The position numbers and the translations under genes were made by a program. The notes beneath the pieces were generated by a model. The model searched no databases and was not told the origin of the DNA. It saw only the letters and a program-made list of their open reading frames with translations. DNA of 32,000 nt from Trichodesmium erythraeum IMS101 (GTDB taxonomy: Bacteria > Cyanobacteriota > Cyanobacteriia > Cyanobacteriales > Microcoleaceae). Within the stretch, counting starts at the first letter, position 1. Every line of letters starts with the position of its first letter. The stretch covers positions 5,100,001 to 5,132,000 of the forward strand of contig NC_008312.1 of assembly GCF_000014265.1 (NCBI RefSeq), in the 5' to 3' direction. This document shows, piece by piece, positions 2,936-24,168 of this stretch.

Positions 2936-3706
2936 ATGGGTATTATATATATTGGCGATCGCGAAACAGGTAAAACTTCTCTTGCTCTTGAACTAGCTAA
3001 CCCTAGTAGTAATAATTTTGTCAAAGTTATTTCCCCCCCCTACAACGAACTAAAGGCTTTACTGTGGGACGATGTAGAGGGGAGAACCCGTGCTACGGAT
3101 GGCAGGGAAGCTACCTATGACCGGACCCTAGAAATAGAAGTTTTCCTTTCCACTAGGCGCAAAACAATATATACCGACTGGGTCGATACTCCTGGAGAAA
3201 TATGGCGAGGAAGTTGGCAAAAAAATAACCCGGACAAATGGGCCAGTTTTGTAGAAACTGCTCATAGTAGCCAAGGAGTTATTCTAGTTGTCCCTCCCTA
3301 TCGGGAAATTATCCGTCAAGATGGGGGAACCAACCCTGATGAATTTATTACTCAACAGCAGTGGGTACGACGGTTTGATAGCTGGGTAGATTTTTTCCGT
3401 TATGAGTGTCCAAATGTCAAACATATTGCTTTATGTCTGAATAAAGTGGACTTACTCCAAGGTATTGACCTGAAACAGGAAGCAGAAAAATTGGCCTTTC
3501 ATCCCCACAGCTCCCGTATGAACTGGAATGAACGCAATGACTATATCTTCAAGCGCTTTTTCCGTCCTATTCGCTCCCATATTGCTCAACTTAATAAATA
3601 CACTTCTGGTTTAAGTGTGAGGTGTTTTATTACTAGCATTTATAACCGTGAGCTTCTTGAGCTACCCTGGATTTATCTAGGAATTTATCTTAAAAGTGAC
3701 ATTTAA
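2936..3706 (+). CDS. P-loop GTPase-like protein, paralog 1 (canonical G1/G3/G4 motifs)
   Basis: 256 aa. G1/Walker A GDRETGKT (aa 7-14), G3 DTPGE (aa 84-88), canonical G4 NKVD (aa 169-172). The next paralog starts 16 nt downstream. Confidence 0.8.
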   Translation: MGIIYIGDRETGKTSLALELANPSSNNFVKVISPPYNELKALLWDDVEGRTRATDGREATYDRTLEIEVFLSTRRKTIYTDWVDTPGEIWRGSWQKNNPDKWASFVETAHSSQGVILVVPPYREIIRQDGGTNPDEFITQQQWVRRFDSWVDFFRYECPNVKHIALCLNKVDLLQGIDLKQEAEKLAFHPHSSRMNWNERNDYIFKRFFRPIRSHIAQLNKYTSGLSVRCFITSIYNRELLELPWIYLGIYLKSDI

Positions 3707-3722: not shown

Positions 3723-4544
3723 ATGGGAAATATTTGTATCATCGGACCCAAGAACTCAGGAAAAACTACCTATCTCGCTGGACTGAGCTATTATTCTGAT
3801 TATGGAGGTTCTTGTAGTAAATATATAGTTTCACCTCTAAACGATGAGTCTCGCGAGCTAAAGCAGCAAGCGGAAGATACTATTTTGACGGGATTATCCT
3901 TTGATGCGACTGGTACCTATGTTCAGAGCGTAAATGACCTTAACTACTACTCTTTTAAAATTGAAGTAAAAAGGGGACTTTTTAAACCTAAAAATATCAT
4001 TATACTAAATGTTCGGGACTATCCTGGTGAAATATTTGAGAATATCCTCTATGCCAGTCAAACAGATAGTATTCACGAAGAGTTTATCAACGAATGTTTA
4101 ATGCCTGATGTTGATGGTTGTCTGTTGCTGTTTACTGAATGGGAAAATAGCAAAGACGATTTTTATAGTAAACTTATGAGTCGCTTTGTGGAAATAATGG
4201 ATGAACACGGTCGTCTTTACAACTATCGTCTAGCTGTGGTGATGAGTAAATGTGAGCGGGGAGAAATTTGGCCAGGACGTATTGACCCTGAAACCGACCT
4301 ATTCCGTGTTTATTTGAAAAAAACTTTTAAAACCCTCAAAAAAGACATTCCTAAACGGAACTTAAGATTTTTTGCCCTATCAACCTTCGGTGTTTTAGGA
4401 CGTTATGACCCACGGCCAAACCGTGTTGATGCTGTGGGTAGTGGGGGACGAGCTTCGACTTTACGGAAATCGGAGGGGAAATCTTGGAAACCCTATAATC
4501 TCATAGAACCCCTTTGTTGGTTAAATAAGGAGGGGCCAAAATAG
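3723..4544 (+). CDS. P-loop GTPase-like protein, paralog 2 (G4 replaced by SKCE)
   Basis: 273 aa. G1 GPKNSGKT (aa 8-15), G3 DYPGE (aa 99-103), SKCE at the G4 position (aa 175-178), LSTFG G5-like. C-terminal tail WKPYNLIEPLCWL is shared with paralog 3. Confidence 0.8.
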   Translation: MGNICIIGPKNSGKTTYLAGLSYYSDYGGSCSKYIVSPLNDESRELKQQAEDTILTGLSFDATGTYVQSVNDLNYYSFKIEVKRGLFKPKNIIILNVRDYPGEIFENILYASQTDSIHEEFINECLMPDVDGCLLLFTEWENSKDDFYSKLMSRFVEIMDEHGRLYNYRLAVVMSKCERGEIWPGRIDPETDLFRVYLKKTFKTLKKDIPKRNLRFFALSTFGVLGRYDPRPNRVDAVGSGGRASTLRKSEGKSWKPYNLIEPLCWLNKEGPK

Positions 4545-4601: not shown

Positions 4602-5507
4602 ATGGTATTATTTGGCAAACAAAAAAAACTAAACTCGGATTCTTTATCAAAAGCTTTCGGGGATGATTCGCTTTTACGTATTATTGGCGGTCGCAACTCT
4701 GGCAAAACTGCTTATCTGGCCTCTTTGGCCTACTGGCCTAATGCTAATCCAGAAAGTCCAGTCAAAAGCATTACGCCTATTGGTGAGGAAGCAGAAGAAC
4801 TTATAGACAAAGCACGAGATATCTTGGAACAGGGATTAGAACTTGAGCCAACTGACCTAAAGGCTGATATTAATGAAGTGAAAGATTATAGTTTTAGTAT
4901 CAATTTAAAAGACCGCTTTTCTTGGTTGGAGGGTTCAAAGAAGTCAGTTCAACTCAATATCAGTTGCAAGGACTATTCAGGAGAACTTTTCTCCGACCTC
5001 ATTTATAAAAAAGGAGACCCAAAGTTAGAAGGTTATCTGGAAGATTGCTGCTTGGCCAGAGGATTACTAATGCTGGTTGATGGCACAAGTCATCGTAAGG
5101 ATAAGGAGTTTGCTATGGGAATGGAGAAGTTGTTGATGGAAATAGATCGCTCAGAAATGGAGATGCAGCATCGGCGCATCGCGTTGGTATTGAGTAAATG
5201 TGAACAGTTAGAACTGTGGGTTAATCGACATCGACCAAGAAAAGTGGCAGCAAGATTTCCCAAATTGTCTGCTCAACTAGAAGCTTGGTCTTATTCTGGT
5301 GGGGGTACGGTAGAATATTTTACTACTTCGGCCTTTGGAATTTTAGGACGACAGTACCCAGAACCCAACTCAATGCGGTTGAGAAGATCGCGAGATGGAA
5401 CTGGTTCGGTGATTAAAAAGCCGAAACTTTGGCGCCCTTTTGGTTTGGTGTCACCCATTTATTGGCTTTGTACTGGAAAACGCCACTCGGAACTTGATCG
5501 AGACTAG
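4602..5507 (+). CDS. P-loop GTPase-like protein, paralog 3 (G4 replaced by SKCE)
   Basis: 301 aa. G1 GGRNSGKT (aa 29-36), G3 DYSGE (aa 124-128), SKCE (aa 198-201), TSAFG, tail WRPFGLVSPIYWL. Collinear with paralog 2 throughout. Confidence 0.8.
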   Translation: MVLFGKQKKLNSDSLSKAFGDDSLLRIIGGRNSGKTAYLASLAYWPNANPESPVKSITPIGEEAEELIDKARDILEQGLELEPTDLKADINEVKDYSFSINLKDRFSWLEGSKKSVQLNISCKDYSGELFSDLIYKKGDPKLEGYLEDCCLARGLLMLVDGTSHRKDKEFAMGMEKLLMEIDRSEMEMQHRRIALVLSKCEQLELWVNRHRPRKVAARFPKLSAQLEAWSYSGGGTVEYFTTSAFGILGRQYPEPNSMRLRRSRDGTGSVIKKPKLWRPFGLVSPIYWLCTGKRHSELDRD

Positions 5508-5556: not shown

Positions 5557-8500
5557 ATGAGTATGGAGAATAAAATATATATTCACGAATTTAGTACTGG
5601 CATTGAGGTAAAAGGTACGGCAACAGCATGGGAATCAGGGGGTTTTACCGGAGAGTATATGAACCGGACTCTTGACAAAATTCCGCAGGCAGTATTAGAT
5701 TCAATCGCTAACAGAGAGTTTGCTTTAGCGGAAGGGGTGGTGAGAGCAGAGCCGGCGATCGTGGGGCGGGTAGTAAGACGTGGTAAGGAAAGCTGGTCGG
5801 TAGTAGCAGTCGTAACAAGGGGTCGAGACGATTTCGGACGGGGAGTATCCCTATACCGTTATTTTCTGTGTCAGGGAGATACAGGCATTGAAACTATTTT
5901 GCGCTGGATGAATAAACCGCTTTCGTGGGTGTTTAATCCGTTTGATAAGAGGGCGATCGGGGAACCTCATCAAGCAGATCATAGTTATATGGAGGTTAAC
6001 TTAATTAAATTTAAGGAGATGTTAGACCAGTCACCACCAATTATTTTTCTTGCTGCAGAGAGTTGTACACCGTTGCTATTAAATGAAATAACGCGAAAAC
6101 TACGGAGACCCAATGGCGATCGCTCATGGGCTTATAAAGTGGCTATGTTGGAACGACCAGAGTATTTTCAGGTCATTTATCCCGCTGATGCTAAAGCAGA
6201 GATGGTCATCAGGGAAGTTTTAGACCGCCGTCAAAGTTCCTCAGTGCTGATATCGGGAGAATCTGGAATTAAAACAGCAATTAAAGCGGTGATGAATGGT
6301 CGGGTGAAGCGGGGACATATTGAGAGTTTAGAAAATGCTCTGGGAAACCAAGGGCTTGATAAGAATTATTGGAAATCTGTTTTAGATAAAGAGGGCGCTT
6401 CTCAAGCTGTTACAGAAAATATTTATGGCGATCGCTATGTGCGACTGTTGACGTTAAAAGCAATGTTAGTTCCACAATTTTTGCCTGAATTTCTAGCTTG
6501 GCTTGCTCATTCACAGGAAGGGGAAATACATTATGGTACTTCGTTAAAGTTACAGCAATCAATGTTACAAGAAGCCCCGAAATTTACTGAACATTTTCCC
6601 CGACTTTCTGAATATCTCAAATGGGGAATTTGCTATACAATTGATGACTTGGTTGATGAGCCGAAAATTATTAAACAATCTCAATTCTTATTAACTAAGC
6701 CAGGGTTTTGGGGTCAGCTTTACAAAGAATCTCTTTCTAAGGAGTTGGAGAATGTTCTCGATCTTATGGGTGAAAAGAGACATAATTTGGAGTCTCTGAA
6801 TTCTCTATATCCCCAATGGAGTAGTTTATTGGGTAAAATTAATAAGTTTTGGTATCCGCAAGAACGACCCGATAATAAATATAAGAGTTTGGCAGAGTTG
6901 TTTGAGAAATTAGAAACCGCAAAATTGGCTGCTATTTTCTATCAAATAGCAGAGGGTAGCGTTCCGAAAAATTTGTTTGACAGTATTTTACCCTCAGATA
7001 AAAAATCAGAATCAACAAGACTTTTTAACAAGAAGATTGATCGCAAGAAAAGTGTAGGCGATCATATTAGTTCTGTTTTCAATGACGTTCAAACAACTTT
7101 TCTTTTAAGTCGGCGGACAGCAATTCAGAAATTGATGAACAATTCCGTAAAGTGGGAATACCTCACAACTTTGGATAATGCTTTGGACAACTCTACAGAA
7201 AACCAACTAAACGATAATGAATCATGGGAGTCATTTTTCGACAAGCAAGGAGCGAAAGGAGCATTGGATAAGAATTCTTACTCTAAGCGCATCATAAAAC
7301 TGTTGACATTAAAGGCCATCTTGATTCCACATTTTTTACCTCTTTTTCTGGAATGGCTTAGGAAATCAGAAGAATCGGAAAAACACTATAGTGTCTCTCA
7401 AAATCTACAGGAAGAGATATTAGGGAAAGTCCCAGAATTGACTCAAAATTGTCCAAAACTTTCTGAACAACTCAAATGGGGTATTTGTATCGTTATTCAT
7501 AGCTTGGTTAATTACCCACACATTCTTAAAGAGTCCAAGTTGTTGTTAACTAAACCAGGGTTGTGGTCGGAGGTTTACCAAGAATCTCTTTCTGGGGAGT
7601 TAGAGAATGACATAAATCTGATAAGTGCTTATATTTCTGGGAGAAGAGATTTGCCGTTTCAGGCAGTTCAATACCCTGAATGGGAGGAGCTGTTGAGGGA
7701 TATTATGAAGTTTTCGCCACGGGGACAACAAGCAGATTCTCGATATTGGACATTGGGGAATTTGTTTGAAGCAGTGGAAACACCAAAACTGGCTCAAGTT
7801 TTCTATGGAATAGGGGGGAATGAGGCTCCGACATCAATAATGCCTTCAAAAAAGGCTCAGAAATCAAAGGGTATTGTAAAAATTTGCTGGGATTTTTTGT
7901 TTGAAAAGATAGACATGGGAGATAGAATGCGTAGAATTTTTATTTTGTTGGTTTTCTTCGCCTCAGTATCCTTCGCTGGATATAGTGGATGGTTTCTGCG
8001 AGGTATTCTACAGCCTAACGGTTCAGCGTCAAAAAGGAATGAAAATTATCAAGCAATTAATGCTTTAATAGATGATTTGACTAAAGAAACAAAAAATATA
8101 TTTGATCAGAGCAAGAAGAATAATCAAGATGATAAGTTACCTAAAAAAATTATTGCTAGCATTAAGCAGAAGAAATTAAATAAGCCAGAAGAAATTTTAC
8201 CGTTTTGTATTGGAGACATACTAGAAATTAAAGATTTTCAGTACAGTGATATAAAGGCAGATAATCAAAAATCACTAAAATTTAGTGAAGCTATTTCTAA
8301 ATATCAGGATCAAAAAGGAATAAAAAATGCTGCTCCTGGGATAATTAAAAGAGATAAAAATACATATAAACAGTTAAAAATAGATATTGAAAATGAATGC
8401 TTGTCTCCTAGGCTTTCTGAGATAAATCAAGATAAATACGATAAAACTAATGCAGCAATTGAGGCAATAGCAAAAGGATTGGAAATAAAGATAAAAGATT

Positions 8501-8871
8501 TAGTTTCAAATAAAAGTTTACCTACTGATATCCCAGCAATATTTTATAAAGATTACTATCAAGAGCAAAACCCAAACCCACAAAACATCAACTCACAAGG
8601 AATTGTACAGCACTGTGTAAAAAAAGAACTGGGACTGGGGTCTGACTTCCAGTACAGCTATATTAGGCAATATAATAAAGAATGGGAGAAATTTAGTGAA
8701 ACAATCAAGAAATATCAGAGAGAAAAAGGTACAATGACAGCTCCTGATGGAGTAATTAATCAGGAGAAAGATACACAAAAAACATTAAAAGAAAATATTC
8801 AGAAAAAATGCTTAAAATCTACAACAGTTGAATCCCTTAACCTGAAAAACCCAAAACCACCTAGTACATAA
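5557..8871 (+). CDS. Giant (1104 aa) single-pass membrane protein: N-terminal alpha/beta region, two ~215-aa helical repeats, one TM helix, lysine-rich C-terminal region with two ~70-aa repeats
   Basis: Long uninterrupted ORF 49 nt after GTPase paralog 3. Internal repeats at aa ~256-470 and ~537-757. TM segment RRIFILLVFFASVSFAGYSGWFL (aa ~792-815, nt ~7930-8001). C-terminal repeats at aa ~882-951 and ~1018-1088. The stop overlaps the next start (TAATG). Confidence 0.85.
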   Translation: MSMENKIYIHEFSTGIEVKGTATAWESGGFTGEYMNRTLDKIPQAVLDSIANREFALAEGVVRAEPAIVGRVVRRGKESWSVVAVVTRGRDDFGRGVSLYRYFLCQGDTGIETILRWMNKPLSWVFNPFDKRAIGEPHQADHSYMEVNLIKFKEMLDQSPPIIFLAAESCTPLLLNEITRKLRRPNGDRSWAYKVAMLERPEYFQVIYPADAKAEMVIREVLDRRQSSSVLISGESGIKTAIKAVMNGRVKRGHIESLENALGNQGLDKNYWKSVLDKEGASQAVTENIYGDRYVRLLTLKAMLVPQFLPEFLAWLAHSQEGEIHYGTSLKLQQSMLQEAPKFTEHFPRLSEYLKWGICYTIDDLVDEPKIIKQSQFLLTKPGFWGQLYKESLSKELENVLDLMGEKRHNLESLNSLYPQWSSLLGKINKFWYPQERPDNKYKSLAELFEKLETAKLAAIFYQIAEGSVPKNLFDSILPSDKKSESTRLFNKKIDRKKSVGDHISSVFNDVQTTFLLSRRTAIQKLMNNSVKWEYLTTLDNALDNSTENQLNDNESWESFFDKQGAKGALDKNSYSKRIIKLLTLKAILIPHFLPLFLEWLRKSEESEKHYSVSQNLQEEILGKVPELTQNCPKLSEQLKWGICIVIHSLVNYPHILKESKLLLTKPGLWSEVYQESLSGELENDINLISAYISGRRDLPFQAVQYPEWEELLRDIMKFSPRGQQADSRYWTLGNLFEAVETPKLAQVFYGIGGNEAPTSIMPSKKAQKSKGIVKICWDFLFEKIDMGDRMRRIFILLVFFASVSFAGYSGWFLRGILQPNGSASKRNENYQAINALIDDLTKETKNIFDQSKKNNQDDKLPKKIIASIKQKKLNKPEEILPFCIGDILEIKDFQYSDIKADNQKSLKFSEAISKYQDQKGIKNAAPGIIKRDKNTYKQLKIDIENECLSPRLSEINQDKYDKTNAAIEAIAKGLEIKIKDLVSNKSLPTDIPAIFYKDYYQEQNPNPQNINSQGIVQHCVKKELGLGSDFQYSYIRQYNKEWEKFSETIKKYQREKGTMTAPDGVINQEKDTQKTLKENIQKKCLKSTTVESLNLKNPKPPST
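6322..7827 (+). repeat. Intragenic tandem duplication (two ~215-aa modules, nt ~6322-6966 and ~7165-7827) inside the giant protein
   Basis: Shared blocks in the same order: LLTLKA(M/I)L(V/I)P.FLP.FL.WL, HY, P.LSE.LKWGIC, LLTKPG.W, Y.ESLS.ELEN, YP.W..LL, LFE..ET.KLA..FY.I. Confidence 0.8.
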
Positions 8872-9995
8872 TGAAACTTTACTTCTATATTCTTTCCGGC
8901 ATAACTTCCGCCCTTCTTGGATGGAACATAGGACAACTGTTCCTCAGTGACTTTGGCTTGTTTAACCTTTTGGCTGAAGTTGGCATTTTTCCGGAAATAA
9001 TCTTGTTTCCCTGCATTGCTATCTCCCTGGCGATGGGCAGTATTGCTAACGAAATCTTCCTTAGTAACCCCACTCGTCCCAAAATCAGCTTGCGGACGCT
9101 ACCCGCTCCCTTGTTCATCGCTTTCATTATAGGAATTATCTTTGGTTTAGTAGCGGGTGGCATTTACCAAATTTTCTTAGCTCCCGAAATAGCTGTTCCC
9201 CCTTTTATTGTTCGCATCTGTGGTTGGTTAATAGTGGGAGCTTCCGTAGGCTCTGCCGAAGGGTTGAGTTGGCGGTGGCGTAGTATTCAAGCTGGCAACC
9301 CTAAATACTTCCGAAAACGACTTTTTCTCAGTATGATCACAGCTAGTATTGCCAGTCTCATAGCTGCTATCGCCTTTGAATTATTGCGCCAAATTCAGGG
9401 ATCTATGCCAGCATCTTTCAAATCTTATGAAGATCCTTTCGGTTTTGCTATTTTGGGATTATGTTTGGGCATTGCTTTTAGTATTACCAACTTTACCCCC
9501 AGTTATCTGCCAGCATTGAGAGCAGGAAGTGGATTCGAGTATTCAGGAGAAGAATATGATGACATCGATCCCCGTCGGACAGTCCTCAGTCGAGACTATC
9601 CCAGGATAAATAGCTCCCTCCTGAAGTTTATCAGTTACCGTTCTCAATACAAATACGATAATGACTACAAAATTGAGGAAGGTTTATCTATGGAACTTCC
9701 CGACCAGGGAATTATTCGCATTGGTTCAGCCAACAAAGCTCAGATTTGCCTTCCCCACCTCCCTCTGCACGCTGCAGATATTAGACTAAAAAGAAAAAAC
9801 GCGATTTTATTTCCCAACCCAAGGTTTTTTGATACCGTTGCCATTAACGGGACGCGACTCAGTTCTAGTCGTAATATTGATCTCAAACATAACTATGTCC
9901 TTACTTTCTACACTAATGCTCAAGATGATAATATTGAAGTTCCCGAATGCTACCGTATGGTCTTCTATAACCGCTTTTTCGATCCGATGGCTTAG
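8871..9995 (+). CDS. Polytopic (~6 TM) glycine-zipper membrane protein with C-terminal divergent FHA-like domain
   Basis: 374 aa. The ATG shares one base with the upstream TAA (TAATG at 8869-8873). TM helices contain GxxxGxxxG (GIIFGLVAGG, GASVGSAEG). C-terminus IIRIGSANKAQICLPHLPLHAADIRL...VAINGTRL fits the FHA pattern loosely. Confidence 0.75.
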   Translation: MKLYFYILSGITSALLGWNIGQLFLSDFGLFNLLAEVGIFPEIILFPCIAISLAMGSIANEIFLSNPTRPKISLRTLPAPLFIAFIIGIIFGLVAGGIYQIFLAPEIAVPPFIVRICGWLIVGASVGSAEGLSWRWRSIQAGNPKYFRKRLFLSMITASIASLIAAIAFELLRQIQGSMPASFKSYEDPFGFAILGLCLGIAFSITNFTPSYLPALRAGSGFEYSGEEYDDIDPRRTVLSRDYPRINSSLLKFISYRSQYKYDNDYKIEEGLSMELPDQGIIRIGSANKAQICLPHLPLHAADIRLKRKNAILFPNPRFFDTVAINGTRLSSSRNIDLKHNYVLTFYTNAQDDNIEVPECYRMVFYNRFFDPMA

Positions 9996-11208
9996 TAGTT
10001 TAGCTATAGCTATACTAGGTTTCAACAGTTCAGCTTTCGGACAGACTGCCGAAATTGTTGGTCGTCCCATGGTCAAGGATGATGAAATTACTCTCCGCAT
10101 TAAAGTTACTGAAGATGGAGAGCGCCCGGCAATGTTTCTTGAAGAACAAGATTTTCAGGCAATTGTCGATAACGACCTGGTAGATATTATATCATGGAAA
10201 AATCCTGAAGAAAGCGTTCCTCCTCCAGCATGGATTATAGTTTTGCTCGACTTTAGCGGGAGTATGAAGGAAAAAGATAGTAGTGGAACTACAAAACTTG
10301 AGGGAGCGATCAAGGCTACCCGAGAATTTCTGGAAACAACGAGTGCGCGTGGTAGCAATACCAGGGTAGCAATTTTTCCTTTTGGGGAAGGTGGAGGAAG
10401 ATGTAATAGTTATAAGGTGAGGAGGGAGAATATCAAATCTAGATTTTTTCCTGCGGACGATTTCAAACACAAAAACTTACTAGATAATCTGGCCAAGAAA
10501 ACTCCTTGCGCATCCACTAATATTTATGACCCTCTCAAAGAAGCTATCCGCTTGCTCAGCGACCAAGAAGATACGGACTTTTATGTTCCTGAAGATTCCA
10601 TAGAACCAGAACCACGACTATCAGTGATTTTGCTGTCTGATGGGTACCATAACAAAAAATACGAAAACCGGGATTTTAGGAGATTAATTGCTTTACTTGA
10701 GCGTCATGATCATATTGTGGTTCACACTTTGGGATACGGTTTAACACAAGAACAGCTTGGAAAAAAGTATAATCTGGGACGACCAGCAACCCGCGCTGAT
10801 GTAAATCAAAAATATGTTCCAGCAGAGGAATTTGTTGACCAGATGCGTTTGCAGGAAATAGCAGAAGTAACAGGAGGAATCTCAGAATTCTCTGGTGATG
10901 CTGATGATATTGCCGAGGCGTTGCAGTTATTTCTCAATTCTCTGTTAGGAGAATACGAGATTATTTATCGGGAACCCAACCCGGTACGCGCCTCTAAACA
11001 TGAGGTTTTTGTGACAGCTACAGTTAATGGACAGGATGTAGATACTACACAGAAATCTTATACTATTAATGCTTTTGGGCGATCGCTACCAGCAAAAACC
11101 AGATTAAAAATGACGGGTTTAGTGTTGTTGCTATTGGGGTTAGGAGGAGTTATACCTTTCTGGAATTGGAGTCAGAGACTCAAGCAAGAAACTGAAGAAG
11201 ATTTTTAA
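9925..11208 (+). CDS. Secreted vWA-domain protein with C-terminal membrane anchor
   Basis: MIDAS DFSGS (IIVLLDFSGSMKE), later ILLSDGYHN. Signal-peptide-like WLSSLAIAILGFNSSAFG/QT. C-terminal TM GLVLLLLGLGGVIPFW. The start is uncertain: in-frame ATGs at 9829, 9895, 9916 and 9925 all overlap the upstream gene, and I chose 9925 as closest to the signal peptide. Confidence 0.7.
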   Translation: MIILKFPNATVWSSITAFSIRWLSSLAIAILGFNSSAFGQTAEIVGRPMVKDDEITLRIKVTEDGERPAMFLEEQDFQAIVDNDLVDIISWKNPEESVPPPAWIIVLLDFSGSMKEKDSSGTTKLEGAIKATREFLETTSARGSNTRVAIFPFGEGGGRCNSYKVRRENIKSRFFPADDFKHKNLLDNLAKKTPCASTNIYDPLKEAIRLLSDQEDTDFYVPEDSIEPEPRLSVILLSDGYHNKKYENRDFRRLIALLERHDHIVVHTLGYGLTQEQLGKKYNLGRPATRADVNQKYVPAEEFVDQMRLQEIAEVTGGISEFSGDADDIAEALQLFLNSLLGEYEIIYREPNPVRASKHEVFVTATVNGQDVDTTQKSYTINAFGRSLPAKTRLKMTGLVLLLLGLGGVIPFWNWSQRLKQETEEDF

Positions 11209-11275
11209 TGACAAAATGAGCAACTTTTTGAATTTGCTATAATTACATAGCTATCTCTCAGGAGAAAAAACTACA

Positions 11276-12709
11276 ATGAACTGGCAAAACTTGACTCAAA
11301 AACTCCCTAAACCAATTATCTTCGGAATATTCGGCGGTGCTGGATGTCTTATAGCTGCGGCAATATTTGGTGAAATGTGGCTGTCTCTGACCAGGCGACC
11401 TCCCCAACCTCAAACTGTCGTTCTCCTCATCGACACTTCTTCTAGCATGTGGGGTGGTAAACTTCCAGAAGTCCAAGCAGCAGCTACCGGATTCGTTGAA
11501 CGACAAAATTTAACTGTTAATAACTTAGCCATTGTAGAATTTTCCAGCAACTCGCAAGTTCTGACCAATTTTGATGCTGATAAAACTGAACTCAAACAAG
11601 CGATCGCTAATCTCACCCCATCTGGAGGTACAAACCTTTCTCAAGGCCTCAAAACAGTCGCTTCTCTTCTGCGAAACAGCAACACTCCCAATATTCTCCT
11701 ATTTACAGATGGTCAACCCAACGACCCTAGGGCCTCAAAATCAATAGCTAGAGAAATCCGAGAGGCAGGAATTAATTTAGTCACAGTGGGAACCGGAGAT
11801 GCAAACAGTAACTATCTCACTTCCTTGACAGAAAATCCAGACCTAGTCTTTTTTGCTAACTCTGGAGAAATAGACCAAGCTTTCCGAGCTGCTGAAAAAG
11901 CCATCTCACAACTATCTGACACAAGTGGTAATTACGGCTTAGTCTTCGGTATTTTCCGCATAGGGGCATGGACCGGTTTTCTGGCTCTCGGAATTGGACT
12001 GGCCTTAATCCTTGGACAAAACTATAACCTCCGCCGTCGGTTGTTGTCGAAGCAAGAAGTTGCTCTTGGAGGTGGGGGTGGTTTTCTCGCTGGAGTAGTA
12101 GGTGGAGCGATCGGTCAATTGGCGCTTCTGTCAAGTACTAATCTCCCGACTTTAGCGATCGTAGCTCGAATGACCGGCTGGACTTTTCTCGGAACCCTTG
12201 TTGGTGGTGGAACGTCTTTATTTGTTCCTAACCTACCTCGTGAAAAAGCCTTGATCGCCGGAGGGTTAGGAGGTGTGTTAGGAGCGACTTGCTTTCTCTT
12301 GCTCAATGCATTGGTAGGTGTGCTTCCAGCTCGTTTGGTAGGAGCAGGAATTTTAGGATTTTGCATTGGGTTGGCTATCGCTTTTAGTGAACAACTAGAC
12401 CGGGAGGTAGTATTGTTGGTTCGCTGGAACAACTCAGAATTTACAACTATTTCCTTGGGAAAGGAACCCATTGAACTTGGTAGCTCCCGGAATGCTCATA
12501 TTTATCTATCAAGAGATGCTGGTTTTCCCGCTAAGTTTGCTAAGATATTTATTGAAGAAGAAAAAATTATTTTAGAATTTGACCCGTCAATTAGAGAGCG
12601 CCCGAAGTTTCAAAATATGAAAGTTTTGAAACAGGAACTTTCATATGGCTCAAGTCGTAAATTCGGAGATGTTTTATTAGAAATTCCACAAAAAAACATA
12701 CTAAAATAA
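11276..12709 (+). CDS. Membrane protein: N-terminal TM, vWA domain, five glycine-zipper TM helices, C-terminal divergent FHA-like domain
   Basis: 477 aa. TM1 IIFGIFGGAGCLIAAAIFG. MIDAS DTSSS (VVLLIDTSSSMWG), GGTNLSQG, LLFTDGQPND. TM block aa ~220-371 has GFLAGVVGGAIG, GGLGGVLG, GILGFCIG. C-terminus ISLGKEPIELGSSRNAHIYLSRD...FAKIFIEEEKIILEFD. Confidence 0.75.
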   Translation: MNWQNLTQKLPKPIIFGIFGGAGCLIAAAIFGEMWLSLTRRPPQPQTVVLLIDTSSSMWGGKLPEVQAAATGFVERQNLTVNNLAIVEFSSNSQVLTNFDADKTELKQAIANLTPSGGTNLSQGLKTVASLLRNSNTPNILLFTDGQPNDPRASKSIAREIREAGINLVTVGTGDANSNYLTSLTENPDLVFFANSGEIDQAFRAAEKAISQLSDTSGNYGLVFGIFRIGAWTGFLALGIGLALILGQNYNLRRRLLSKQEVALGGGGGFLAGVVGGAIGQLALLSSTNLPTLAIVARMTGWTFLGTLVGGGTSLFVPNLPREKALIAGGLGGVLGATCFLLLNALVGVLPARLVGAGILGFCIGLAIAFSEQLDREVVLLVRWNNSEFTTISLGKEPIELGSSRNAHIYLSRDAGFPAKFAKIFIEEEKIILEFDPSIRERPKFQNMKVLKQELSYGSSRKFGDVLLEIPQKNILK

Positions 12710-12995
12710 TTCTTAAGTCTGGAGTCAGCAGGAGAACTAATATTATCGTTTATACTAGTAATTTGATTTTTATCTATGGAATTAATTGGATTAAATCATC
12801 ATGTCAATAATTATATCAAGCCTGGTTAAATAGTTATTATTCAAGCTTGTAAAACAAAAACTTTTTTTTACTTATTATCTGGACATCATGTCATACCATT
12901 TTAATAAAGTTATGCCATCAGCATAAATTATTGAGTAACCTTTTCTCAGTCATGGTTAGGCGGATTAAACTCTTCCATATTTTTAAAGAAATTGG

Positions 12996-13086
12996 TCAGG
13001 ACTTACCCATAACTTAACTATACATAGCAAGGGTTAACGACCGTTAACCTCTACAAATAGTGTATAATTTGTGTGCGTAAGTCCTC
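12996..13086. mobile_element. MITE-like element (~90 bp) with terminal inverted repeats TCAGGACTTACCCA ... TGCGTAAGTCCT
   Basis: Termini are reverse complements (GGACTTAC / GTAAGTCC). Internal palindrome GGTTAACGACCGTTAACC. The same termini occur at 21669-21759, 24054-24143 and 30486-30606. Confidence 0.6.
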
Positions 13087-13304
13087 TTAGTCTTAGTTAA
13101 GAAGCCAAGAGATAAGAGGCACTTATGTAGAAGGTGACTATCAGGAGTCTCCTGAATGGGAGCCACTGAACTATTTTCAGGGCAGGGAATTGAAGCCCAA
13201 ATGCCCTAAGTTCACCAAAAGACTTGTCTTCGGCGTCGGGATAGATCTATCCTACCTCCTGCCTTTCTTTGTTCAAAAGAATTTAGTATGGGAAACAAAA
13301 ATTT

Positions 13305-13694
13305 ATGGTAAAATACACCCTAACAATTGCGAACAATAGTCAACCTAACTTAAATCCTGTATCCTACAGTTTAGAATTGGGTTATGAGTCTGAAAATAAT
13401 CCAGAACAGTTGTTTGATAGAGAATTTCGCGAACAACTCCGCTCAACTCTCCAACAAAAAACATCCTGTTCGATCAATGATTACCATTTAGAAACTATTG
13501 TGACAATTTGGATGGAGGATATCTGTAGGGGTTATCGCTCAACCAGTCTCAGTTTCAATCTCCTCCCAATAGAATTTGATAATATTCATCGACTTCAAGA
13601 TCCAGGAGATTTCTCAATTCCTGATCTATTTCCTCCCGACCTAAGCACAATTTGCCCCCAAAACGGAGTTTTTCCTCCATTAATCTTTAATTAA
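13305..13694 (+). CDS. Hypothetical protein (129 aa), orphan ORF in the gap splitting the cluster
   Basis: ORF only, with no recognisable motif. Same orientation as the cluster. Composition is protein-like, but there is no supporting signal. Confidence 0.35.
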   Translation: MVKYTLTIANNSQPNLNPVSYSLELGYESENNPEQLFDREFREQLRSTLQQKTSCSINDYHLETIVTIWMEDICRGYRSTSLSFNLLPIEFDNIHRLQDPGDFSIPDLFPPDLSTICPQNGVFPPLIFN

Positions 13695-13871
13695 ATCTAT
13701 GATAGATAGCAGTTCTTGAATTTATAAGGTACAGTTTTAGAACCATCCCCGCTATCCTTAAAAATGGAATATCTTTCAAAGTTTCCCTGAAAAAGGGAGA
13801 TTCAGGAGGATCGTCAGTGTACTTGAGAACTGTGGGAATTGCTAGAATAAAAACCTATTACTTAAAAATTT

Positions 13872-15197
13872 ATGCTTGACGTAACCATTACCCCCCATCG
13901 AGAATTTCTAGCGGCTGATACCCCTGGACAAAAGCTGTTTGTCATGTTAAAATTACGTCCAAACGCAATTGTTTCAGCAAGTCGTCCTTCAACAACCTTC
14001 ACCTTTGTTATTGATACCAGTGGTTCAATGTATGATGATAGTGAAGTGGGGAGGCCGAAAATTGATATTGTTGTTGAAGCTCTCGAACGCTTAGTTACTG
14101 ATATACAAGCAGATCCTCGCGATCGAATTGCCCTAGTACAATTTGATGATTCAGCATCAGTTTTGTTGCCCTTGACTGCTGCCACAGATACTGTTACTCT
14201 CCAAAATGCCATCTCCAAATTACGAAGTTTTAGTGGTGGAACAAGGATGGCTTTGGGAATAGAAAAATCCCTGAATTTATTGAAAGACTCTGTTCTCAGT
14301 AGTCGTCGCACTCTCATTTTTACTGATGGACAGACAATAGATGAAATTGACTGTCGAGAACTAGCGGTACAATTTGCCCAAGCTGGAATTCCTATTACTG
14401 CTCTCGGTGTTGGTGACTACAATGAAGACTTGTTAGTCTATTTGAGTGATCACACTGGGGGTCGCGTTTTTAATGTTGTGGAACAAGCCAGTAATACTGG
14501 AACCACAGATATAGCAATTTCTGAGCTGCCACAGACAATTTTTCAAGAAGTACAACAGGCTCAAGCTGAGGTCATTAATAACCTCAAGCTTAGTGTTCGT
14601 ACTGTCAAAGGGGTTAATTTACAAAGACTTAGCCGTGTTTATCCAGACCGCGCTGATATTCCTGTTACTCAAGAACCTTATCTCATCGGCAGCGCTCTCG
14701 CTAATGACGATACTATTTTTATTCTTGATTTTGATATTGATAGCAGAGCTCAATCACGGGTTCGTATTGCTCAATTAGGTTTAACTTACGACATTCCCGG
14801 TCAGCAGCGACGAGGAGAACTACCCCCTCAAAATCTTGTTATTCAGTTGGTTGCCGGAAAAGGTGGAATTGCCCAAACAAATCCGGAAGTCATGGGATAT
14901 GTACAACAGTGTAACATTGGTCAATTAGTCGATCATGCAGCAGCAGTAGCTGATAGCAACCCTGATGAAGCAGCAAAACTTTTGGAAACAGCAAAACGAG
15001 TAACTGTCAAAATTGGAAATGAAGCCATGTTAAAAACTCTCAATCTTGGTATTGAAGAAGTACGCAAAACCCGTAAACTGTCTTCAGGAACCCGCAAGAC
15101 TGTAAAAATGGGTGCTAAGGGTAAAACTGTAAAAATGAGCGATAGTCCTAATGATCAACTTTCAGAAGAACAAATCCGTAATATGACAGGAACCTAG
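13872..15197 (+). CDS. Soluble vWA-domain protein (TerY-like)
   Basis: 441 aa. MIDAS DTSGS (TFTFVIDTSGSMYDD), GGTRMALG, LIFTDGQTID. No TM segment. Basic C-terminal tail with repeated KTVKM. Confidence 0.8.
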   Translation: MLDVTITPHREFLAADTPGQKLFVMLKLRPNAIVSASRPSTTFTFVIDTSGSMYDDSEVGRPKIDIVVEALERLVTDIQADPRDRIALVQFDDSASVLLPLTAATDTVTLQNAISKLRSFSGGTRMALGIEKSLNLLKDSVLSSRRTLIFTDGQTIDEIDCRELAVQFAQAGIPITALGVGDYNEDLLVYLSDHTGGRVFNVVEQASNTGTTDIAISELPQTIFQEVQQAQAEVINNLKLSVRTVKGVNLQRLSRVYPDRADIPVTQEPYLIGSALANDDTIFILDFDIDSRAQSRVRIAQLGLTYDIPGQQRRGELPPQNLVIQLVAGKGGIAQTNPEVMGYVQQCNIGQLVDHAAAVADSNPDEAAKLLETAKRVTVKIGNEAMLKTLNLGIEEVRKTRKLSSGTRKTVKMGAKGKTVKMSDSPNDQLSEEQIRNMTGT

Positions 15198-15285
15198 TCT
15201 GAAACCTAACTTTACGCCAGATACCTGACACTTATAATGGAAAAACTCAGTTAAAAGAAAAAAGAGTGAATGTTGTTAATTTTTC

Positions 15286-15320
15286 AACCTAAAACCTAAA
15301 ACCTAACACCTAACACCTAA
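15286..15320. repeat. Heptanucleotide tandem array (AACCTAA x3, CACCTAA x2), STRR-like
   Basis: Five perfect or near-perfect 7-nt units, ending 9 nt upstream of the ATG at 15330. Confidence 0.7.
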
Positions 15321-15329
15321 AAAATAGCT

Positions 15330-16049
15330 ATGTATATTACCTGTGAAACTTGTGGCTACGATAATAATCCCACGGATGCCGAATACTGCGAGGCATGTGG
15401 TGCAGAGTTGAAAAGTACTAGTCCCGCTATCATTGAACAAAATCAACCAATTACAACTCCTAAAGTTATTCCTATGACACCTTCAGGACCAGAGTTAGCT
15501 GTTACTACTTGTCAAGCTTGTGGCTATGATAATAATCCTATTGATGCTGAATATTGTGGCGCATGTGGTGCAGAGCTAAAAAGCATCGCTGCCACTACCA
15601 TTCAAACAAATCCAACAATTACGACTCCTAAATTCATTCCCATCACACCTTCAGGGCCAGGATTAGAATCTACTTCTGCCATTCCCACACCTTCTTTATC
15701 GACAACAATATCCCCTGCACGTTTAGTTGCTAAACAACCCAATGTCCCTCAATCTGAATTTCCTCTAAACAATGTTGCAGTGGTAGGGGTGTTCGATCCT
15801 GATAGTGGTCCAGTGGATATCGATCTTGAAAGTTTTCTGGGTGGGGAAACAGTGTCACGTCAGCACGCCGAAATTTACCCAGAATATGGGCATTGGATGG
15901 TAAAAGACCTAGGATCACTTAACGGTATTTTTATCAAACCTAGTGGTCAAACTCGCTTTGGGGCAAGAATTACCACTCCTATGAATTTGAATCCTGGGGA
16001 CGAAATTGCCTTTGGAAAAGTTCAATTTGTATTTCGACTAGGAAGTTAG
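15330..16049 (+). CDS. Double zinc-ribbon FHA-domain protein
   Basis: 239 aa. Two CxxC-x11-CxxC ribbons (CETCGYDNNPTDAEYCEACG, CQACGYDNNPIDAEYCGACG) lie within a tandem ~56-aa duplication. C-terminal FHA signature GGETVSRQHAEI...KDLGSLNGIFI...GDEIAFG. Confidence 0.85.
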   Translation: MYITCETCGYDNNPTDAEYCEACGAELKSTSPAIIEQNQPITTPKVIPMTPSGPELAVTTCQACGYDNNPIDAEYCGACGAELKSIAATTIQTNPTITTPKFIPITPSGPGLESTSAIPTPSLSTTISPARLVAKQPNVPQSEFPLNNVAVVGVFDPDSGPVDIDLESFLGGETVSRQHAEIYPEYGHWMVKDLGSLNGIFIKPSGQTRFGARITTPMNLNPGDEIAFGKVQFVFRLGS

Positions 16050-16117
16050 CAAAAACTATAGCTAATTTGAGGACTTCACCACTTTGTTAACATCTTACAT
16101 CATCATTAAGTAAGCTC

Positions 16118-18019
16118 GTGATTTCAGAAAATACTTCGTTACAAATTGAACAGTTATCAATAACTGTACTCGAAAATATAGGTCAACGTAATAATCAAAT
16201 TCGCTATTTTAAAGTACGCTTTGACAGTGAAGATAGCGAAATGAATCAAATAGGAATGTTGCGTGTAGGTTCGGCAACAGGTTTACTTCAGCAGGAGTTA
16301 CAACTGCGGGAAATTTTAGGTGAGTATGCCTTAGTCGCTCCCCTCATCGCCAAAACTACTGTTTCCGACATTGCACAAATTATAACAGTATCGTCACCTG
16401 CAAAAGATACTGTTGTCCAAACCCCTATAGACGAAACTTTGACATCAAGTTGTGATAATGGAACAAGTCAGAAAACTTTACTTCAGACCAATGAAGAACA
16501 AATTGAGACGCCATCAGAGGTCGAAACCGAAATAGAAGCGGAAACTATGGAAACTGTTGTAGAAAAAACAATAGATTCTGAAGTTCTAGCCGATGAAAAA
16601 TCCTTTGATGAAGATACCCTTGATGCGGTAGACTTAGACTCTTTAAAATCTTCTGATGAGCCTAATAATGGTGACTATCTTGAAGATGAGTATTATCCAG
16701 AAATACCTCTTCCCGGTAATGAAGGGGAACAGTTGTTGCTGTTAACAGAGTTTCCTGATAGCCAACTCACCCTCAGTAACTGGTTAAAAAATTCTCCTAG
16801 TCCACTAGAAGCCTTAAAATTGAGCACACAAATTTGTCAGTTTTTCTGGTATCTCCATCAAAAAAAATGGTGCCTAATTGACCTTGACCCAGATTTGATA
16901 GCAGTCGGTAAACCTATTTGCTGTTTTGACCTCACTTGTGCTTATCCTGAAGCTAGGCCGCTCACCAGTGGATTAATAGGAACTTATTGCGCTCCTGAAT
17001 TAGCCTTTGTTCCAACACCTGAGGAGAAAAGTAGCACTTACACTATTGGTGCTTTACTTTATCATATGTTGCATGGAGACCCACCTACCAAGGAACTGAA
17101 GTATAAAGAATGTTCAGTACCCCTCTTTGCTCAACTACTAGCGTTATCTTTGTCTCCCCTTATTGATGAACGTTTTTCTCTGGTACAGTTACGGAGTTTG
17201 CTCATTGAGGCTTATAATACTCTAGATACTGTTCGTGTGAGTTGGGAAATAGCTAGTAAATCAACGGTGGGACTATCTCCACAACGACTGCACAATGAAG
17301 ACAGTTACGGAATCACTCAAAGTGATTCTGATGGTTCTGAAATCGTTGTTTTAGCAGCTTTAGCAGACGGAATGGGAGGAATGGCCCAAGGAGAAGTGGC
17401 TAGTCGTTTAGCAGTGAAGACTATTCTTAATGGATTAAGTGGAGAAGTTGAAAATACCCGAAATAATAGAGAGCGTTGGCTGATTTATCTTATAGAACAG
17501 GCTAATGCTGAAGTTTCAAAGGTAGCTCCAAATGGGGGAACAACATTAAGTTTAGTGTTATTAGAGTCGACAAAAATGTCCCTCGCACATGTAGGTGATA
17601 GTCGTATTTATTTGATTCGCGATCGAGAAATTCGTCAGTTGAGCGAAGATCATTCTTTAGTTGCTCTCCTTGTCGCTAGCGGCCAAATTTCTGCAGCAGA
17701 AAGTCGGCAGCATCCAGAGCGCAATGTTCTAACTAAGTCTTTGGGGGCGAAAAAGCGCCTTTCCCAGGGTTATGTACAAACTGTTACTGATATAGAGTTG
17801 CAAGATGGTGATGTTATTTTGTTATGCTCTGATGGTGTTTGGGATCTGGTAAGTGACCAAGAACTGACAGAACTTTTCATGCCAATGAGCTCAACAACAG
17901 TGTTGCAGACTGCTGTCAACCAAGGGATAAAGCTGGTTTTAAAACGTGGCGCACCAGATAATGCCACTCTATTAGCGTTACGCTGTCAGATAACTCCTAC
18001 TCAAGTTTATTTCCCTTAA
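16118..18019 (+). CDS. Degenerate protein-kinase-like domain (probable pseudokinase) with acidic insert, fused to a PP2C (PPM) Ser/Thr phosphatase
   Basis: 633 aa with a GTG start. Kinase-like C-lobe: LIDLDPDL in place of HRDLKPEN, CCFDLTC in place of DFG, YCAPEL retained; no GxGxxG or VAIK Lys seen. Acidic insert aa ~95-200. PP2C motifs NEDSYG, LADGMGG, GGTTLS, HVGDSRIYL, LCSDGVWD, PDNATLLAL. Confidence 0.85.
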   Translation: MISENTSLQIEQLSITVLENIGQRNNQIRYFKVRFDSEDSEMNQIGMLRVGSATGLLQQELQLREILGEYALVAPLIAKTTVSDIAQIITVSSPAKDTVVQTPIDETLTSSCDNGTSQKTLLQTNEEQIETPSEVETEIEAETMETVVEKTIDSEVLADEKSFDEDTLDAVDLDSLKSSDEPNNGDYLEDEYYPEIPLPGNEGEQLLLLTEFPDSQLTLSNWLKNSPSPLEALKLSTQICQFFWYLHQKKWCLIDLDPDLIAVGKPICCFDLTCAYPEARPLTSGLIGTYCAPELAFVPTPEEKSSTYTIGALLYHMLHGDPPTKELKYKECSVPLFAQLLALSLSPLIDERFSLVQLRSLLIEAYNTLDTVRVSWEIASKSTVGLSPQRLHNEDSYGITQSDSDGSEIVVLAALADGMGGMAQGEVASRLAVKTILNGLSGEVENTRNNRERWLIYLIEQANAEVSKVAPNGGTTLSLVLLESTKMSLAHVGDSRIYLIRDREIRQLSEDHSLVALLVASGQISAAESRQHPERNVLTKSLGAKKRLSQGYVQTVTDIELQDGDVILLCSDGVWDLVSDQELTELFMPMSSTTVLQTAVNQGIKLVLKRGAPDNATLLALRCQITPTQVYFP

Positions 18020-18283
18020 TTCCCGACTTCTCATACTAATTTAGGGTTTGCTAAATAACTCTTATGAGTGAGAATAGGTAGGGGGTTCCGTCGGATATGT
18101 ATAAGAATTAGGAGGCACGCAGCCACGGAGCAGTGGGAATTTACAGGGGATGTAGTCAGAAATATTGTCCCTCAATTTTTCTACTCTTGTCTGGTTGAAA
18201 AAAAGAATGTTATATCAAATCTGTATTGTTAGCAGAGATGATATCAAATTTTACTTTTAACTTCCTAAGATGATATAAAATCT

Positions 18284-18318
18284 TACTTTTGACTTTTGAC
18301 TTTTTACTTTTTACTTCC
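18284..18318. repeat. Heptanucleotide tandem array (TACTTTT GACTTTT GACTTTT TACTTTT TACTTCC), STRR-like
   Basis: Five 7-nt units ending 13 nt upstream of the ATG at 18332. A partial duplicate (TTTTACTTTTAACTTCCTAAGATGAT) sits ~60 nt upstream at ~18250-18275. Confidence 0.7.
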
Positions 18319-18331
18319 TAAGTGATGATCG

Positions 18332-20449: not shown

Positions 20450-20708
20450 CTTTTAGAGTAACAAGTCTGCAAAGAGGGGTAACTACTGAAGTCAGATAAT
20501 TATACACAGTCAAATAAATATTAATAATCCTTGAAAATACTGATTATCTCCTATTTTCAAATTATGATAAATTATCAAATAATTGTTATCATAAAATCAA
20601 GTCTCAAGGGCTATAATTTAGGGGTCGGTACTGATAACTAGAGCTTAGAGTAAATAATTGATAACTTAGTAACAAGTATGAAAAGAGGGCTAACGACTGA
20701 AGCTAGAT
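20447..20708. repeat. Pair of ~50-70 bp direct repeats flanking a ~140-bp AT-rich spacer just 3' of the kinase gene
   Basis: 20447-20497 reads TAGCTTTTAGAGTAACAAGTCTGCAAAGAGGGGTAACTACTGAAGTCAGAT. 20638-20708 reads TAGAGCTTAGAGTAA[ATAATTGATAACTTAG]TAACAAGTATGAAAAGAGGGCTAACGACTGAAGCTAGAT. Confidence 0.55.
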
Positions 20709-21071
20709 CAGGATTTTTTTGTAATTCTGTAGTCTGACAAGCCTGTCTAATGGTTCCAGATCATATCATAGGAGTTTTCGTCTTACCTAATTACCTGAAC
20801 CGTATCGAATTATAAAAGCGATTTTCCAACTTTTACTTGATTGTTTTTGTTTTAGTAAATGCCCCTGCTGATTTAGTAATACCATATCTCTATCAAGAAA
20901 CAAATTGGGAATTTTAATGTAGTCCCACCAACGGGGTTTCAACCGATGAATTGTTTTAGCAAAGTTCCTAGGAAATTGAGAAACAATTCTAGATTTTCCA
21001 GGAGATACTAGCAAACAAGCAAACAATAAGTCACCAGTCCTAATTTTTTTACCTTCGTTAATTATTAATAA

Positions 21072-21512: not shown

Positions 21513-21668
21513 AAAAAATAAGAATCATCTTCCTACTTTAGTTCTCAATAAAAAGTTAATGACAAACCTCTCAAATATAACTTTCCCTAACAAATTCCAA
21601 ATAAATTCCCAGAAATTAAACCTATTACTCATATTCTTTTATCTCCTTGCATTTTATTATTTTTATAA

Positions 21669-24143: not shown

Positions 24144-24168
24144 AAATTTGAGTTTCCTACTCCCTATT

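Follow-up and report, generated by a model that had tools for sequence, protein, structure and literature searches.

Positions 5557 to 8871 (+ strand) of a 32,000-nt stretch of Trichodesmium erythraeum IMS101 DNA (hereafter the window; contig NC_008312.1, positions 5,100,001 to 5,132,000) encode a large membrane protein that we call BIG. With moderate confidence, and on the basis of sequence comparisons, we propose that BIG is the membrane scaffold of a cyanobacterial envelope system of DO-GTPase, vWA, FHA, PP2C and kinase proteins, in which it would act analogously to GTPase-associated protein 1 (GAP1). The strongest evidence for the putative link between BIG and GTPases is very strong synteny with three GTPase genes, G1, G2 and G3. 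We scanned one genome per species, which yielded 118 loci, 79 of which were kept for analysis. In the scanned cyanobacterial loci, the G1-G2-G3 trio lies directly upstream of 56 of the 79 BIG copies with upstream sequence, and the copies without the trio directly upstream are largely second or third tandem BIG paralogues. This arrangement supports the idea, raised in an initial annotation of the sequence, that BIG is a candidate GTPase adaptor.

BIG, its GTPase neighbors and its orientation

The features of BIG and of the upstream trio are listed here in window coordinates, with the basis of each call in brackets; TM denotes transmembrane, HMM a hidden Markov model and ORF an open reading frame.

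2936..3706, +, GTPase 1 (G1), 256 aa, divergent Ras-like P-loop GTPase with GDRETGKT, DTPGE and NKVD (sequence motifs)
3723..4544, +, GTPase 2 (G2), 273 aa, DO-GTPase-like, Walker B DYPGE (Pfam DO-GTPase1 below threshold)
4602..5507, +, GTPase 3 (G3), 301 aa, DO-GTPase2 member, Walker B DYSGE, directly upstream of BIG (PF19993)
5557..8871, +, whole ORF of BIG, single-pass membrane protein (ORF and translation)
5557..6252, +, conserved, predicted cytoplasmic N-terminal region, core aa 1-130 plus alpha/beta subdomain aa 131-232 (model, conservation)
6325..7014, +, helical module copy 1, aa 257-486 (self-comparison; all-alpha in the model)
7180..7866, +, helical module copy 2, aa 542-770 (self-comparison)
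7936..7998, +, predicted TM helix, aa 794-814 (hydropathy scan)
8164..8409, +, exterior repeat 1, aa 870-951, Cys884/Cys948, PG in place of the family DG (family-domain HMM, E 7.5e-21)
8575..8820, +, exterior repeat 2, aa 1007-1088, Cys1020/Cys1085, YQ...DGVI...T motif intact (family-domain HMM, E 4.8e-25)

The D-x-x-G-E Walker B motif is common to all three GTPases, and its Glu is a hallmark of the DO-GTPases (Kaur et al. 2020, PMC7159879). G3 scores above the cut-off of the Pfam DO-GTPase2 model PF19993 (36.4 bits vs 27, E 5.7e-9), G2 matches DO-GTPase1 below threshold (23.1 bits, E 5e-5), and the Pfam matches of G1, the conserved first gene of the operon across loci, are limited to weak Roc/Ras hits. 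G2 and G3 are paralogous (31% identity, E 3e-35), forming a pair of paralogous TRAFAC GTPases with the Walker B Glu, as in DO-GTPase systems. The gap between G3 and BIG is 49 nt here and mostly less than 40 nt in other species. In some loci (L051, L055, L060/L066, L068 and L078; hosts include Anabaenopsis, Cuspidothrix, a Xenococcaceae metagenome-assembled genome (MAG) and a Prochloraceae MAG), two to four tandem BIG paralogues follow a single GTPase trio, an arrangement that fits interchangeable adaptors with a common docking head.

The reading frame of BIG was confirmed, with an ATG start and 1104 aa; the database copy (P0001, 1102 aa) begins at an alternative in-frame ATG at 5563, two codons on. 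A Kyte-Doolittle scan detects a single hydrophobic segment, IFILLVFFASVSFAGYSGWFL (aa 794-814, nt 7936-7998), and the hydropathy scan reveals no N-terminal signal peptide. Nearly all BIG relatives have a TM helix at the equivalent position (~aa 520-550). The initial annotation, which had described a 1104-aa protein with one TM helix, two helical repeats and two exterior repeats in a Lys/Asn/Gln-rich region, was borne out on each of these points. The helical repeats (aa 257-486 and 542-770) share 45% identity (106/233, E 5e-67), and the tail repeats of 82 aa each (aa 870-951 and 1007-1088) share 44% (E 4e-17); the latter had been placed near nt ~8200-8409 and ~8608-8820 and were found at 8164-8409 and 8575-8820. 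K, N and Q make up 15.4%, 8.2% and 7.5% of the exterior region; the respective values for the cytoplasmic part are 8.1%, 4.6% and 4.3%. Residues 1-498, modelled by AlphaFold2 with 55 family sequences (pLDDT 89.9, pTM 0.78), are predicted to form an alpha+beta core at aa 6-124 with the strand/helix order bbb-a-bbb-aa, an alpha/beta subdomain at aa 138-225 and an all-alpha module at aa 235-477. An earlier description of the N-terminus as beta-rich thus captured the strands, but the ~230 aa are modelled as alpha+beta followed by alpha/beta.

BIG belongs to an uncharacterised family found almost only in cyanobacteria. We identified 363 homologues among 90%-identity clusters and, at 50% identity, 587 clusters with E<=1e-3, 313 of them with E<=1e-30. 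All but three of the 79 kept loci are labelled cyanobacterial, and they span Oscillatoriales, Nostocales, Pleurocapsales, Spirulina, Microcystis, Geminocystis and Leptolyngbya-like taxa. The closest named relatives of BIG are Trichodesmium proteins, and homologues, where named, are called only ‘hypothetical’ or ‘peptidoglycan-binding protein’. A typical member is ~715 aa long and consists of the N-terminal region, one helical module, a TM helix at ~aa 520-550 and a ~170-aa tail. Duplication of the helical module is found in BIG and its nearest, Trichodesmium-like relatives (~990-1260 aa), and duplication of the tail domain in BIG and its closest relatives (P0002-P0006). Along the chain, mean pairwise identity drops from 60% over aa 1-130 to 41% over aa 131-232, 39% over the helical module and 21% after the TM helix. 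There are 37 invariant columns in total, with 23 inside aa 1-130 and 27 inside aa 1-232; the invariant residues of the N-terminal core are EFSTGI, GF, N36, T38, E59, G70-R71, D91, R95 and YRYF.

Searches with these conserved regions returned little beyond the family itself. The whole-family profile retrieved close family only among the 150 matches listed of 587 in the representative set, and chance-level matches and no solved structure among PDB sequences. Pfam, NCBIfam and PDB sequence searches gave no match for the N-terminal region, the consensus sequences of the three BIG domains had no match in Pfam, and NCBIfam and PADLOC scans of BIG and its neighbors found nothing relevant to BIG. Unusually long family members, scanned for fusions, contributed only one further PG_binding_1 match and coiled coils. 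From these comparisons, the predicted alpha+beta head and the helical module appear to be two large conserved domains that lie outside any family assignment.

For the orientation of BIG, N-in/C-out is the clear favorite. Three features together favor it: no signal peptide, a part of 790 aa on the N-terminal side, and GTPase neighbors that are cytoplasmic. The N-in topology had been suggested from the RMRR motif, which does precede the TM helix of BIG, and from the positive-inside rule; it is supported by paired cysteines after the TM helix and not by charge. Of the 94 members with any cysteine after the TM helix, 83 carry an even and 11 an odd number, compared with 100 even and 101 odd before it. 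BIG has one pair per exterior repeat (884/948 and 1020/1085), and in the listed tails two alternative pairs appear, by eye, to co-occur in different lineages. Such pairs after the TM helix suggest disulfides, and disulfides in turn a periplasmic tail. Two observations temper this argument. The binomial p of the even/odd split after the TM helix (8e-15) comes from related sequences that are not independent, and over 15 residues on either side of the TM helix, K+R counts average 2.08 (before) and 2.27 (after; n=201 members). With charge neutral and of no discriminating value across the family, we rejected the positive-inside rule as topology evidence.

The exterior domain

The initial annotation noted that the exterior repeats resemble half of the peptidoglycan-binding domain PG_binding_1 (PF01471). 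This resemblance is real and is limited to the half that had been named. An HMM of the family C-terminal domain, built on 77 single-copy relatives, matches BIG twice (E 7.5e-21 and 4.8e-25). PF01471 in turn matches this domain in 9 of 58 aligned relatives and in one further member (P0199), always over profile positions ~25-57; matches at E ~1e-3 or better were found in 10 of the 68 relatives scanned, one of them (P0056) above the gathering threshold (25.9 bits vs 23, E 1.1e-5). Two BIG relatives carry the NCBI name ‘peptidoglycan-binding protein’. When the family domain is compared by hhalign with solved PG_binding_1 domains (KZ144 3bkh, 5tv7 and SleB 4fet), the match scores 85.6% with E 5.6e-6 and covers 27 columns, which comprise helix 2, the DG loop and helix 3. 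AlphaFold2 models exterior repeat 2 as a three-helix bundle (pLDDT 86.5; helices at 7-19, 35-51 and 66-78).

The BIG domain and the PG_binding_1 domains of KZ144, 5tv7 and SleB would share a three-helix bundle of ~60-80 aa, the helix 2-loop-helix 3 segment A(I/V)xxFQ/YQ...gL..DG(I/V)(I/V)G..T...L and an extracytoplasmic location, which for BIG is predicted. Unlike PG_binding_1, the BIG domain has an ‘FQYS.I’ segment in place of the first DG-hydrophobic-G-x-x-T motif, an insertion of 2-3 residues before the conserved Thr and predicted, lineage-specific disulfide pairs, and the BIG copies fall below Pfam thresholds. Taken together, the profile comparisons suggest that the exterior domain of BIG is a diverged, half-degenerate relative of PG_binding_1 and a putative peptidoglycan binder.

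The operon, its mobility and its relation to described systems

BIG and the GTPases are part of a conserved cyanobacterial set of ~12 genes. The genes that follow BIG in the window are these:

8871..9995, +, multi-TM partner, 374 aa (start overlaps the BIG stop, TAATG)
9829..20449, +, rest of the conserved operon (Pfam, PADLOC, synteny), made up of the following
~9955-11208, +, vWA protein with a C-terminal TM helix (Pfam)
11276-12709, +, vWA-multiTM protein (Pfam)
13305-13694, +, 129-aa protein
13872-15197, +, TerY-like vWA protein (PADLOC TerY match)
15330-16049, +, zinc ribbon (ZnR)-ZnR-FHA protein (Pfam)
16118-18019, +, pseudokinase-PP2C (Pfam)
18332-20449, +, Ser/Thr kinase-TPR protein (Pfam)

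We compared gene order by tblastn of the operon proteins against 80 loci (L001 and the 79 loci of the scan). Of the loci whose flanking sequence suffices, the large majority share the order G1-G2-G3-BIG-multiTM-vWA-...-FHA-PP2C-kinase. In 40 of 76 copies, BIG and the multi-TM gene are neighbors, and in 20 more they are no further than 6 kb apart. In other species, a variable insert that the window does not have at the corresponding site (between 11208 and 11276) occurs between the first two vWA genes (L014 14561-18836, L028 14553-19000, L035 14413-17631, L045 15397-18821 and L052 16034-20377). The insert contains 2-5 tandem paralogous lipoproteins of ~260-330 aa with the lipobox L-x-G-C, along with an ARC6-like IMS-domain protein and a membrane-anchored protein of the Beta-lactamase2 fold; the insert may serve the system as sensor or effector. 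Its lipoprotein, ARC6-like and beta-lactamase-fold genes reinforce an envelope and cell-wall theme.

The helical module moves independently of the rest of BIG. In Limnospira, it is encoded in a separate gene together with a TM helix and a C-domain (L001 12265-13818), and in P0064 (980 aa) it is fused in frame to a caspase (Peptidase_C14) and a multi-TM protein. P0064 has 20 member sequences on 2 contigs, and P0065 adds 15 members. Its locus (L083 79-5180, and L084) is a rearranged operon allele on Trichodesmium-like ENA metagenome contigs, in which BIG aa 1-388 is split into ORFs of 211 and 158 aa, followed by the fusion and then by an internally deleted vWA gene. Because BIG is broken and the vWA gene internally deleted in this rearranged allele, we downgraded P0064 from a clean Rosetta-stone fusion to weaker evidence. 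A PP2C-BIG fusion was found in P0075. No classical toxin domain was found in the system, and the caspase fusion and variable insert are known from other loci only.

Further features of the window stand beside the operon. The two zinc ribbons of the ZnR-ZnR-FHA protein are encoded by a 168-nt tandem duplication with 79% matches (15338-15660). The C-terminal domains of the multi-TM (9621-9992) and vWA-multiTM (12356-12706) proteins are related (hhalign 91.8%, E 7e-7); they look FHA-like by eye only, and we dropped that label since neither Pfam nor hhalign links them to the true FHA domain of the operon. The flanks at 1574-2935 and 20450-24168 are long and have few or no ORFs of >=80 aa, and searches of the whole window for Rfam families and tRNAs came back empty. 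A second Ser/Thr kinase of 629 aa (28555-30444, - strand) lies outside the operon, beyond uvrC and a SUI1-family gene.

The operon is mobile, occurring on plasmids as well. At least eight cyanobacterial plasmid records carry it, seven in a close version and one, on a Nostoc sp. ATCC 53789 plasmid, in a divergent version. Trichormus variabilis ATCC 29413 harbors it on its 35.7-kb plasmid B (L081, NC_007411.1), of which the operon takes up about half, across the record origin; the BIG homologue there (WP_011316647.1) is annotated ‘hypothetical protein’. Further plasmid hosts are Nostoc, Tolypothrix, Microchaete and Gloeothece. A tblastn search of plasmids with G3 returned cyanobacterial copies only and no canonical GAP1 locus. 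In Limnospira fusiformis (CP051185), a type III-A CRISPR-Cas (Csm) cluster is found directly upstream of the operon (L001 1-6785), and this adjacency may mark a defence island.

Kaur et al. (2020) predicted DO-GTPase systems that combine a kinase, PP2C and vWA with TM-anchored GAP1 and exterior wall-binding domains; in these systems, DO-GTPase and GAP1 components are fused to TM helices and extracellular wall-binding domains (PMC7159879). GAP1 is encoded after the DO-GTPases, often has a C-terminal TM helix and exterior domains, and was proposed to dock or regulate the GTPases; for the GAP1-N2 theme that combines kinase, PP2C and vWA, occurrence in actinobacteria only was reported (PMC7159879). 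Full-text literature searches found no paper describing the cyanobacterial BIG system. To us it looks like a variant of the DO-GTPase systems, which are themselves only predicted, and the nearest described is the GAP1-N2 type. The initial annotation called BIG a possible, unusual trans-envelope coupler; ‘unusual’ was overstated given the predicted precedent of Kaur et al.

Like GAP1, BIG is encoded directly downstream of a paralogous DO-GTPase pair and combines a multi-domain cytoplasmic part without a catalytic motif with a C-terminal TM helix followed by an exterior domain. The operon shares vWA, PP2C and Ser/Thr kinase genes with the GAP1-N2 systems, and both occur mainly in multicellular or filamentous bacteria. 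The BIG model has three cytoplasmic parts (1-130, 131-232 and 233-480), whose homology to the GAP1 N, M and C domains is unsupported by sequence: unlike GAP1, BIG matches none of the GAP1-N1/N2/M/C models. The operon further differs in having neither an FNIII-repeat nor a GASH companion (Pfam, all operon proteins), and in having a third, Ras-like GTPase, a multi-TM partner, three C-terminal modules that are FHA-type or unassigned and a lipoprotein array present in other species. Where GAP1 has a cadherin, the exterior domain of BIG resembles PG_binding_1, and the system is cyanobacterial, whereas the GAP1-N2 kinase/PP2C/vWA theme is actinobacterial (PMC7159879).

A second set of parallels comes from the threonine-phosphorylation pathway of type VI secretion (T6SS), composed of the kinase PpkA with a periplasmic vWA, the PP2C PppA, Fha and TagF, and from the TerY-P triad of vWA, PP2C and kinase. 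These share a signalling set with the BIG operon, namely vWA, FHA, PP2C and a Ser/Thr kinase in one operon. BIG and TagF also share a weak N-terminal fold resemblance and the existence of a PP2C fusion. Unlike the T6SS pathway, the BIG operon is without T6SS structural genes, contains GTPases and carries its vWA domains on separate proteins, whereas PpkA carries vWA on the kinase; the likeness to TagF is non-significant.

A model for BIG and its alternatives

In the scaffold model that we propose, the conserved N-terminal region would dock the three cytoplasmic GTPases or regulate their nucleotide state, by analogy with the role suggested for GAP1. The helical module(s) would bind the co-translated multi-TM partner and possibly effectors, a link suggested by the TAATG overlap and by the P0064 fusion of the module to a multi-TM protein. 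Linkers of ~55 aa would hold the periplasmic domain(s), which, disulfide-stabilised and fast-evolving, may touch either peptidoglycan or some ligand associated with the wall. In this way, the assembly would link envelope state with GTPase switching and with the phosphorylation arm of vWA, FHA, PP2C and kinase proteins. The setting is most likely a mobile envelope-surveillance system, and we infer a role in conflict or defence. Less likely, the BIG family represents a new class of trans-envelope scaffold, nearly confined to cyanobacteria, in which the alpha+beta head and the mobile helical module fall into no described family. Such a scaffold would read the state of peptidoglycan via a disulfide-locked, half-degenerate PG_binding_1 domain and signal to the GTPase trio and the vWA/FHA/PP2C/kinase network, the whole being a hitherto undescribed, plasmid-mobile wall-surveillance immune system of multicellular cyanobacteria.

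A number of results weigh against the scaffold model. BIG has no match in Pfam or NCBIfam as a whole, nor in Pfam as three pieces. Hmmscan against Pfam-A found no GAP1-N1/N2/M/C, GASH or GAAD match in BIG (E<=10), its three pieces or the domain consensuses, and in 58 relatives (E<=1) GAP1, GASH and GAAD do not feature in the top 25, by frequency, of 81 matched families; an earlier guess that the N-terminus might correspond to the N-domains of GAP1 is thus unsupported. The IMS101 operon is chromosomal, lies between housekeeping genes (cobA/hemD and uvrC) and has no variable lipoprotein region, and no PADLOC defence-system model matched. On the side of the exterior domain, only the second of the two D-G-hydrophobic-hydrophobic-G-x-x-T motifs is conserved in the BIG family, and in repeat 1 of BIG even this lacks its Asp, with P-G in place of D-G. 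The link to PG_binding_1 comes from relatives and from a 27-column profile-profile match. The profile of the C-terminal domain retrieved chance-level matches only and no peptidoglycan-binding protein from the PDB sequences, and Foldseek of the repeat 2 model against PDB gave nothing significant, the top match being proMMP-2 (E 4.9, TM 0.39). ProMMP-2 contains a pro-domain of the PG_binding_1 type, and the pro-domains of matrix metalloproteinases (MMPs) have this fold without binding peptidoglycan.

The results on the exterior domain also favor a rather unlikely alternative, in which the exterior domain is a protein or ligand module for the system's own periplasmic components (vWA, lipoproteins, beta-lactamase-fold protein) and BIG is a signal relay and not a wall tether. 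Only half of the PG_binding_1 signature is kept, Pfam scores are borderline, the exterior evolves fastest (21% identity), as would a surface for recognition of partners or ligands, and several periplasmic partners are encoded in the operon. Against it, the conserved YQ...DG(I/V)I...G.T...L is exactly the segment common to solved peptidoglycan-binding domains, the NCBI names of two members call them peptidoglycan-binding, and further wall-related folds are found in the operon of other species. Those folds can be read another way. The operon could be an accessory module for envelope or wall morphogenesis and stress signalling and not a conflict system, with BIG positioning the GTPases at sites of wall synthesis, like other wall-linked scaffolds. 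ARC6-like IMS-domain and penicillin-binding-fold (Beta-lactamase2) proteins inside the operon of other species are consistent with this idea, as are the chromosomal position of the IMS101 copy and the missing PADLOC match, and Ser/Thr kinase, PP2C and FHA modules often regulate wall synthesis. We consider a morphogenesis module unlikely in view of the eight or more plasmid records and the plasmid half filled by the operon, the patchy distribution, tandem paralogue expansions and decayed or rearranged alleles, the caspase fusion and the CRISPR-Cas adjacency, and the fact that predicted conflict systems are the only known setting of the DO-GTPase family (PMC7159879).

The partner of the N-terminal region can also be questioned. 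If this region were TagF-like, it would act chiefly with the FHA protein and the kinase/phosphatase arm, not with the GTPases, and we regard this as improbable. Foldseek of the aa 1-498 model returned nothing at E<=1e-3, but its top 10 includes TagF of two species (9t0n, E 0.027, prob 0.75; 6iz8; 2qnu), in weak matches with E 0.027-0.15 over 114-152 columns and low TM-scores; the helical part has weak matches to TPR-like solenoids. FHA, PP2C and kinase proteins are all encoded in the operon, and the PP2C-BIG fusion P0075 parallels the TagF-PppA fusions reportedly present in Agrobacterium. The subdomain order of the BIG model is that of A. baylyi TagF, which is described as an alpha+beta domain with an alpha/beta domain after it and as binding Fha through loops of its N-domain (cf. 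PMC5995506). All of these Foldseek E-values exceed 0.01, however, and TagF is absent from the Pfam lists (BIG, the consensuses and the commonest families of 58 relatives) and from the PDB sequence searches, even with profiles or consensuses. No T6SS gene is found in the window, and the linkage of BIG is tighter with the GTPase genes than with the FHA gene. The weak TagF resemblance of the modelled N-terminal region is best treated as a lead and not a finding, and we retain the GTPase-docking scaffold as our reading of BIG.

DO-GTPase systems exist as computational predictions only, without an experimental model, and the cyanobacterial version is widespread, with 587 protein clusters (50% identity) and 118 species or more. 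A compact system on the 35.7-kb plasmid of the genetically tractable Anabaena (Trichormus) variabilis ATCC 29413 makes the proposed coupling of GTPases to the cell wall directly testable. The BIG family supplies two large conserved domains that belong to no assigned family, and its exterior domain would be a diverged PG_binding_1 subtype that is mostly missed by current models. Should the system prove to serve defence or envelope surveillance, it would be relevant to cyanophage resistance in the bloom-forming genera Trichodesmium, Microcystis, Planktothrix and Limnospira.

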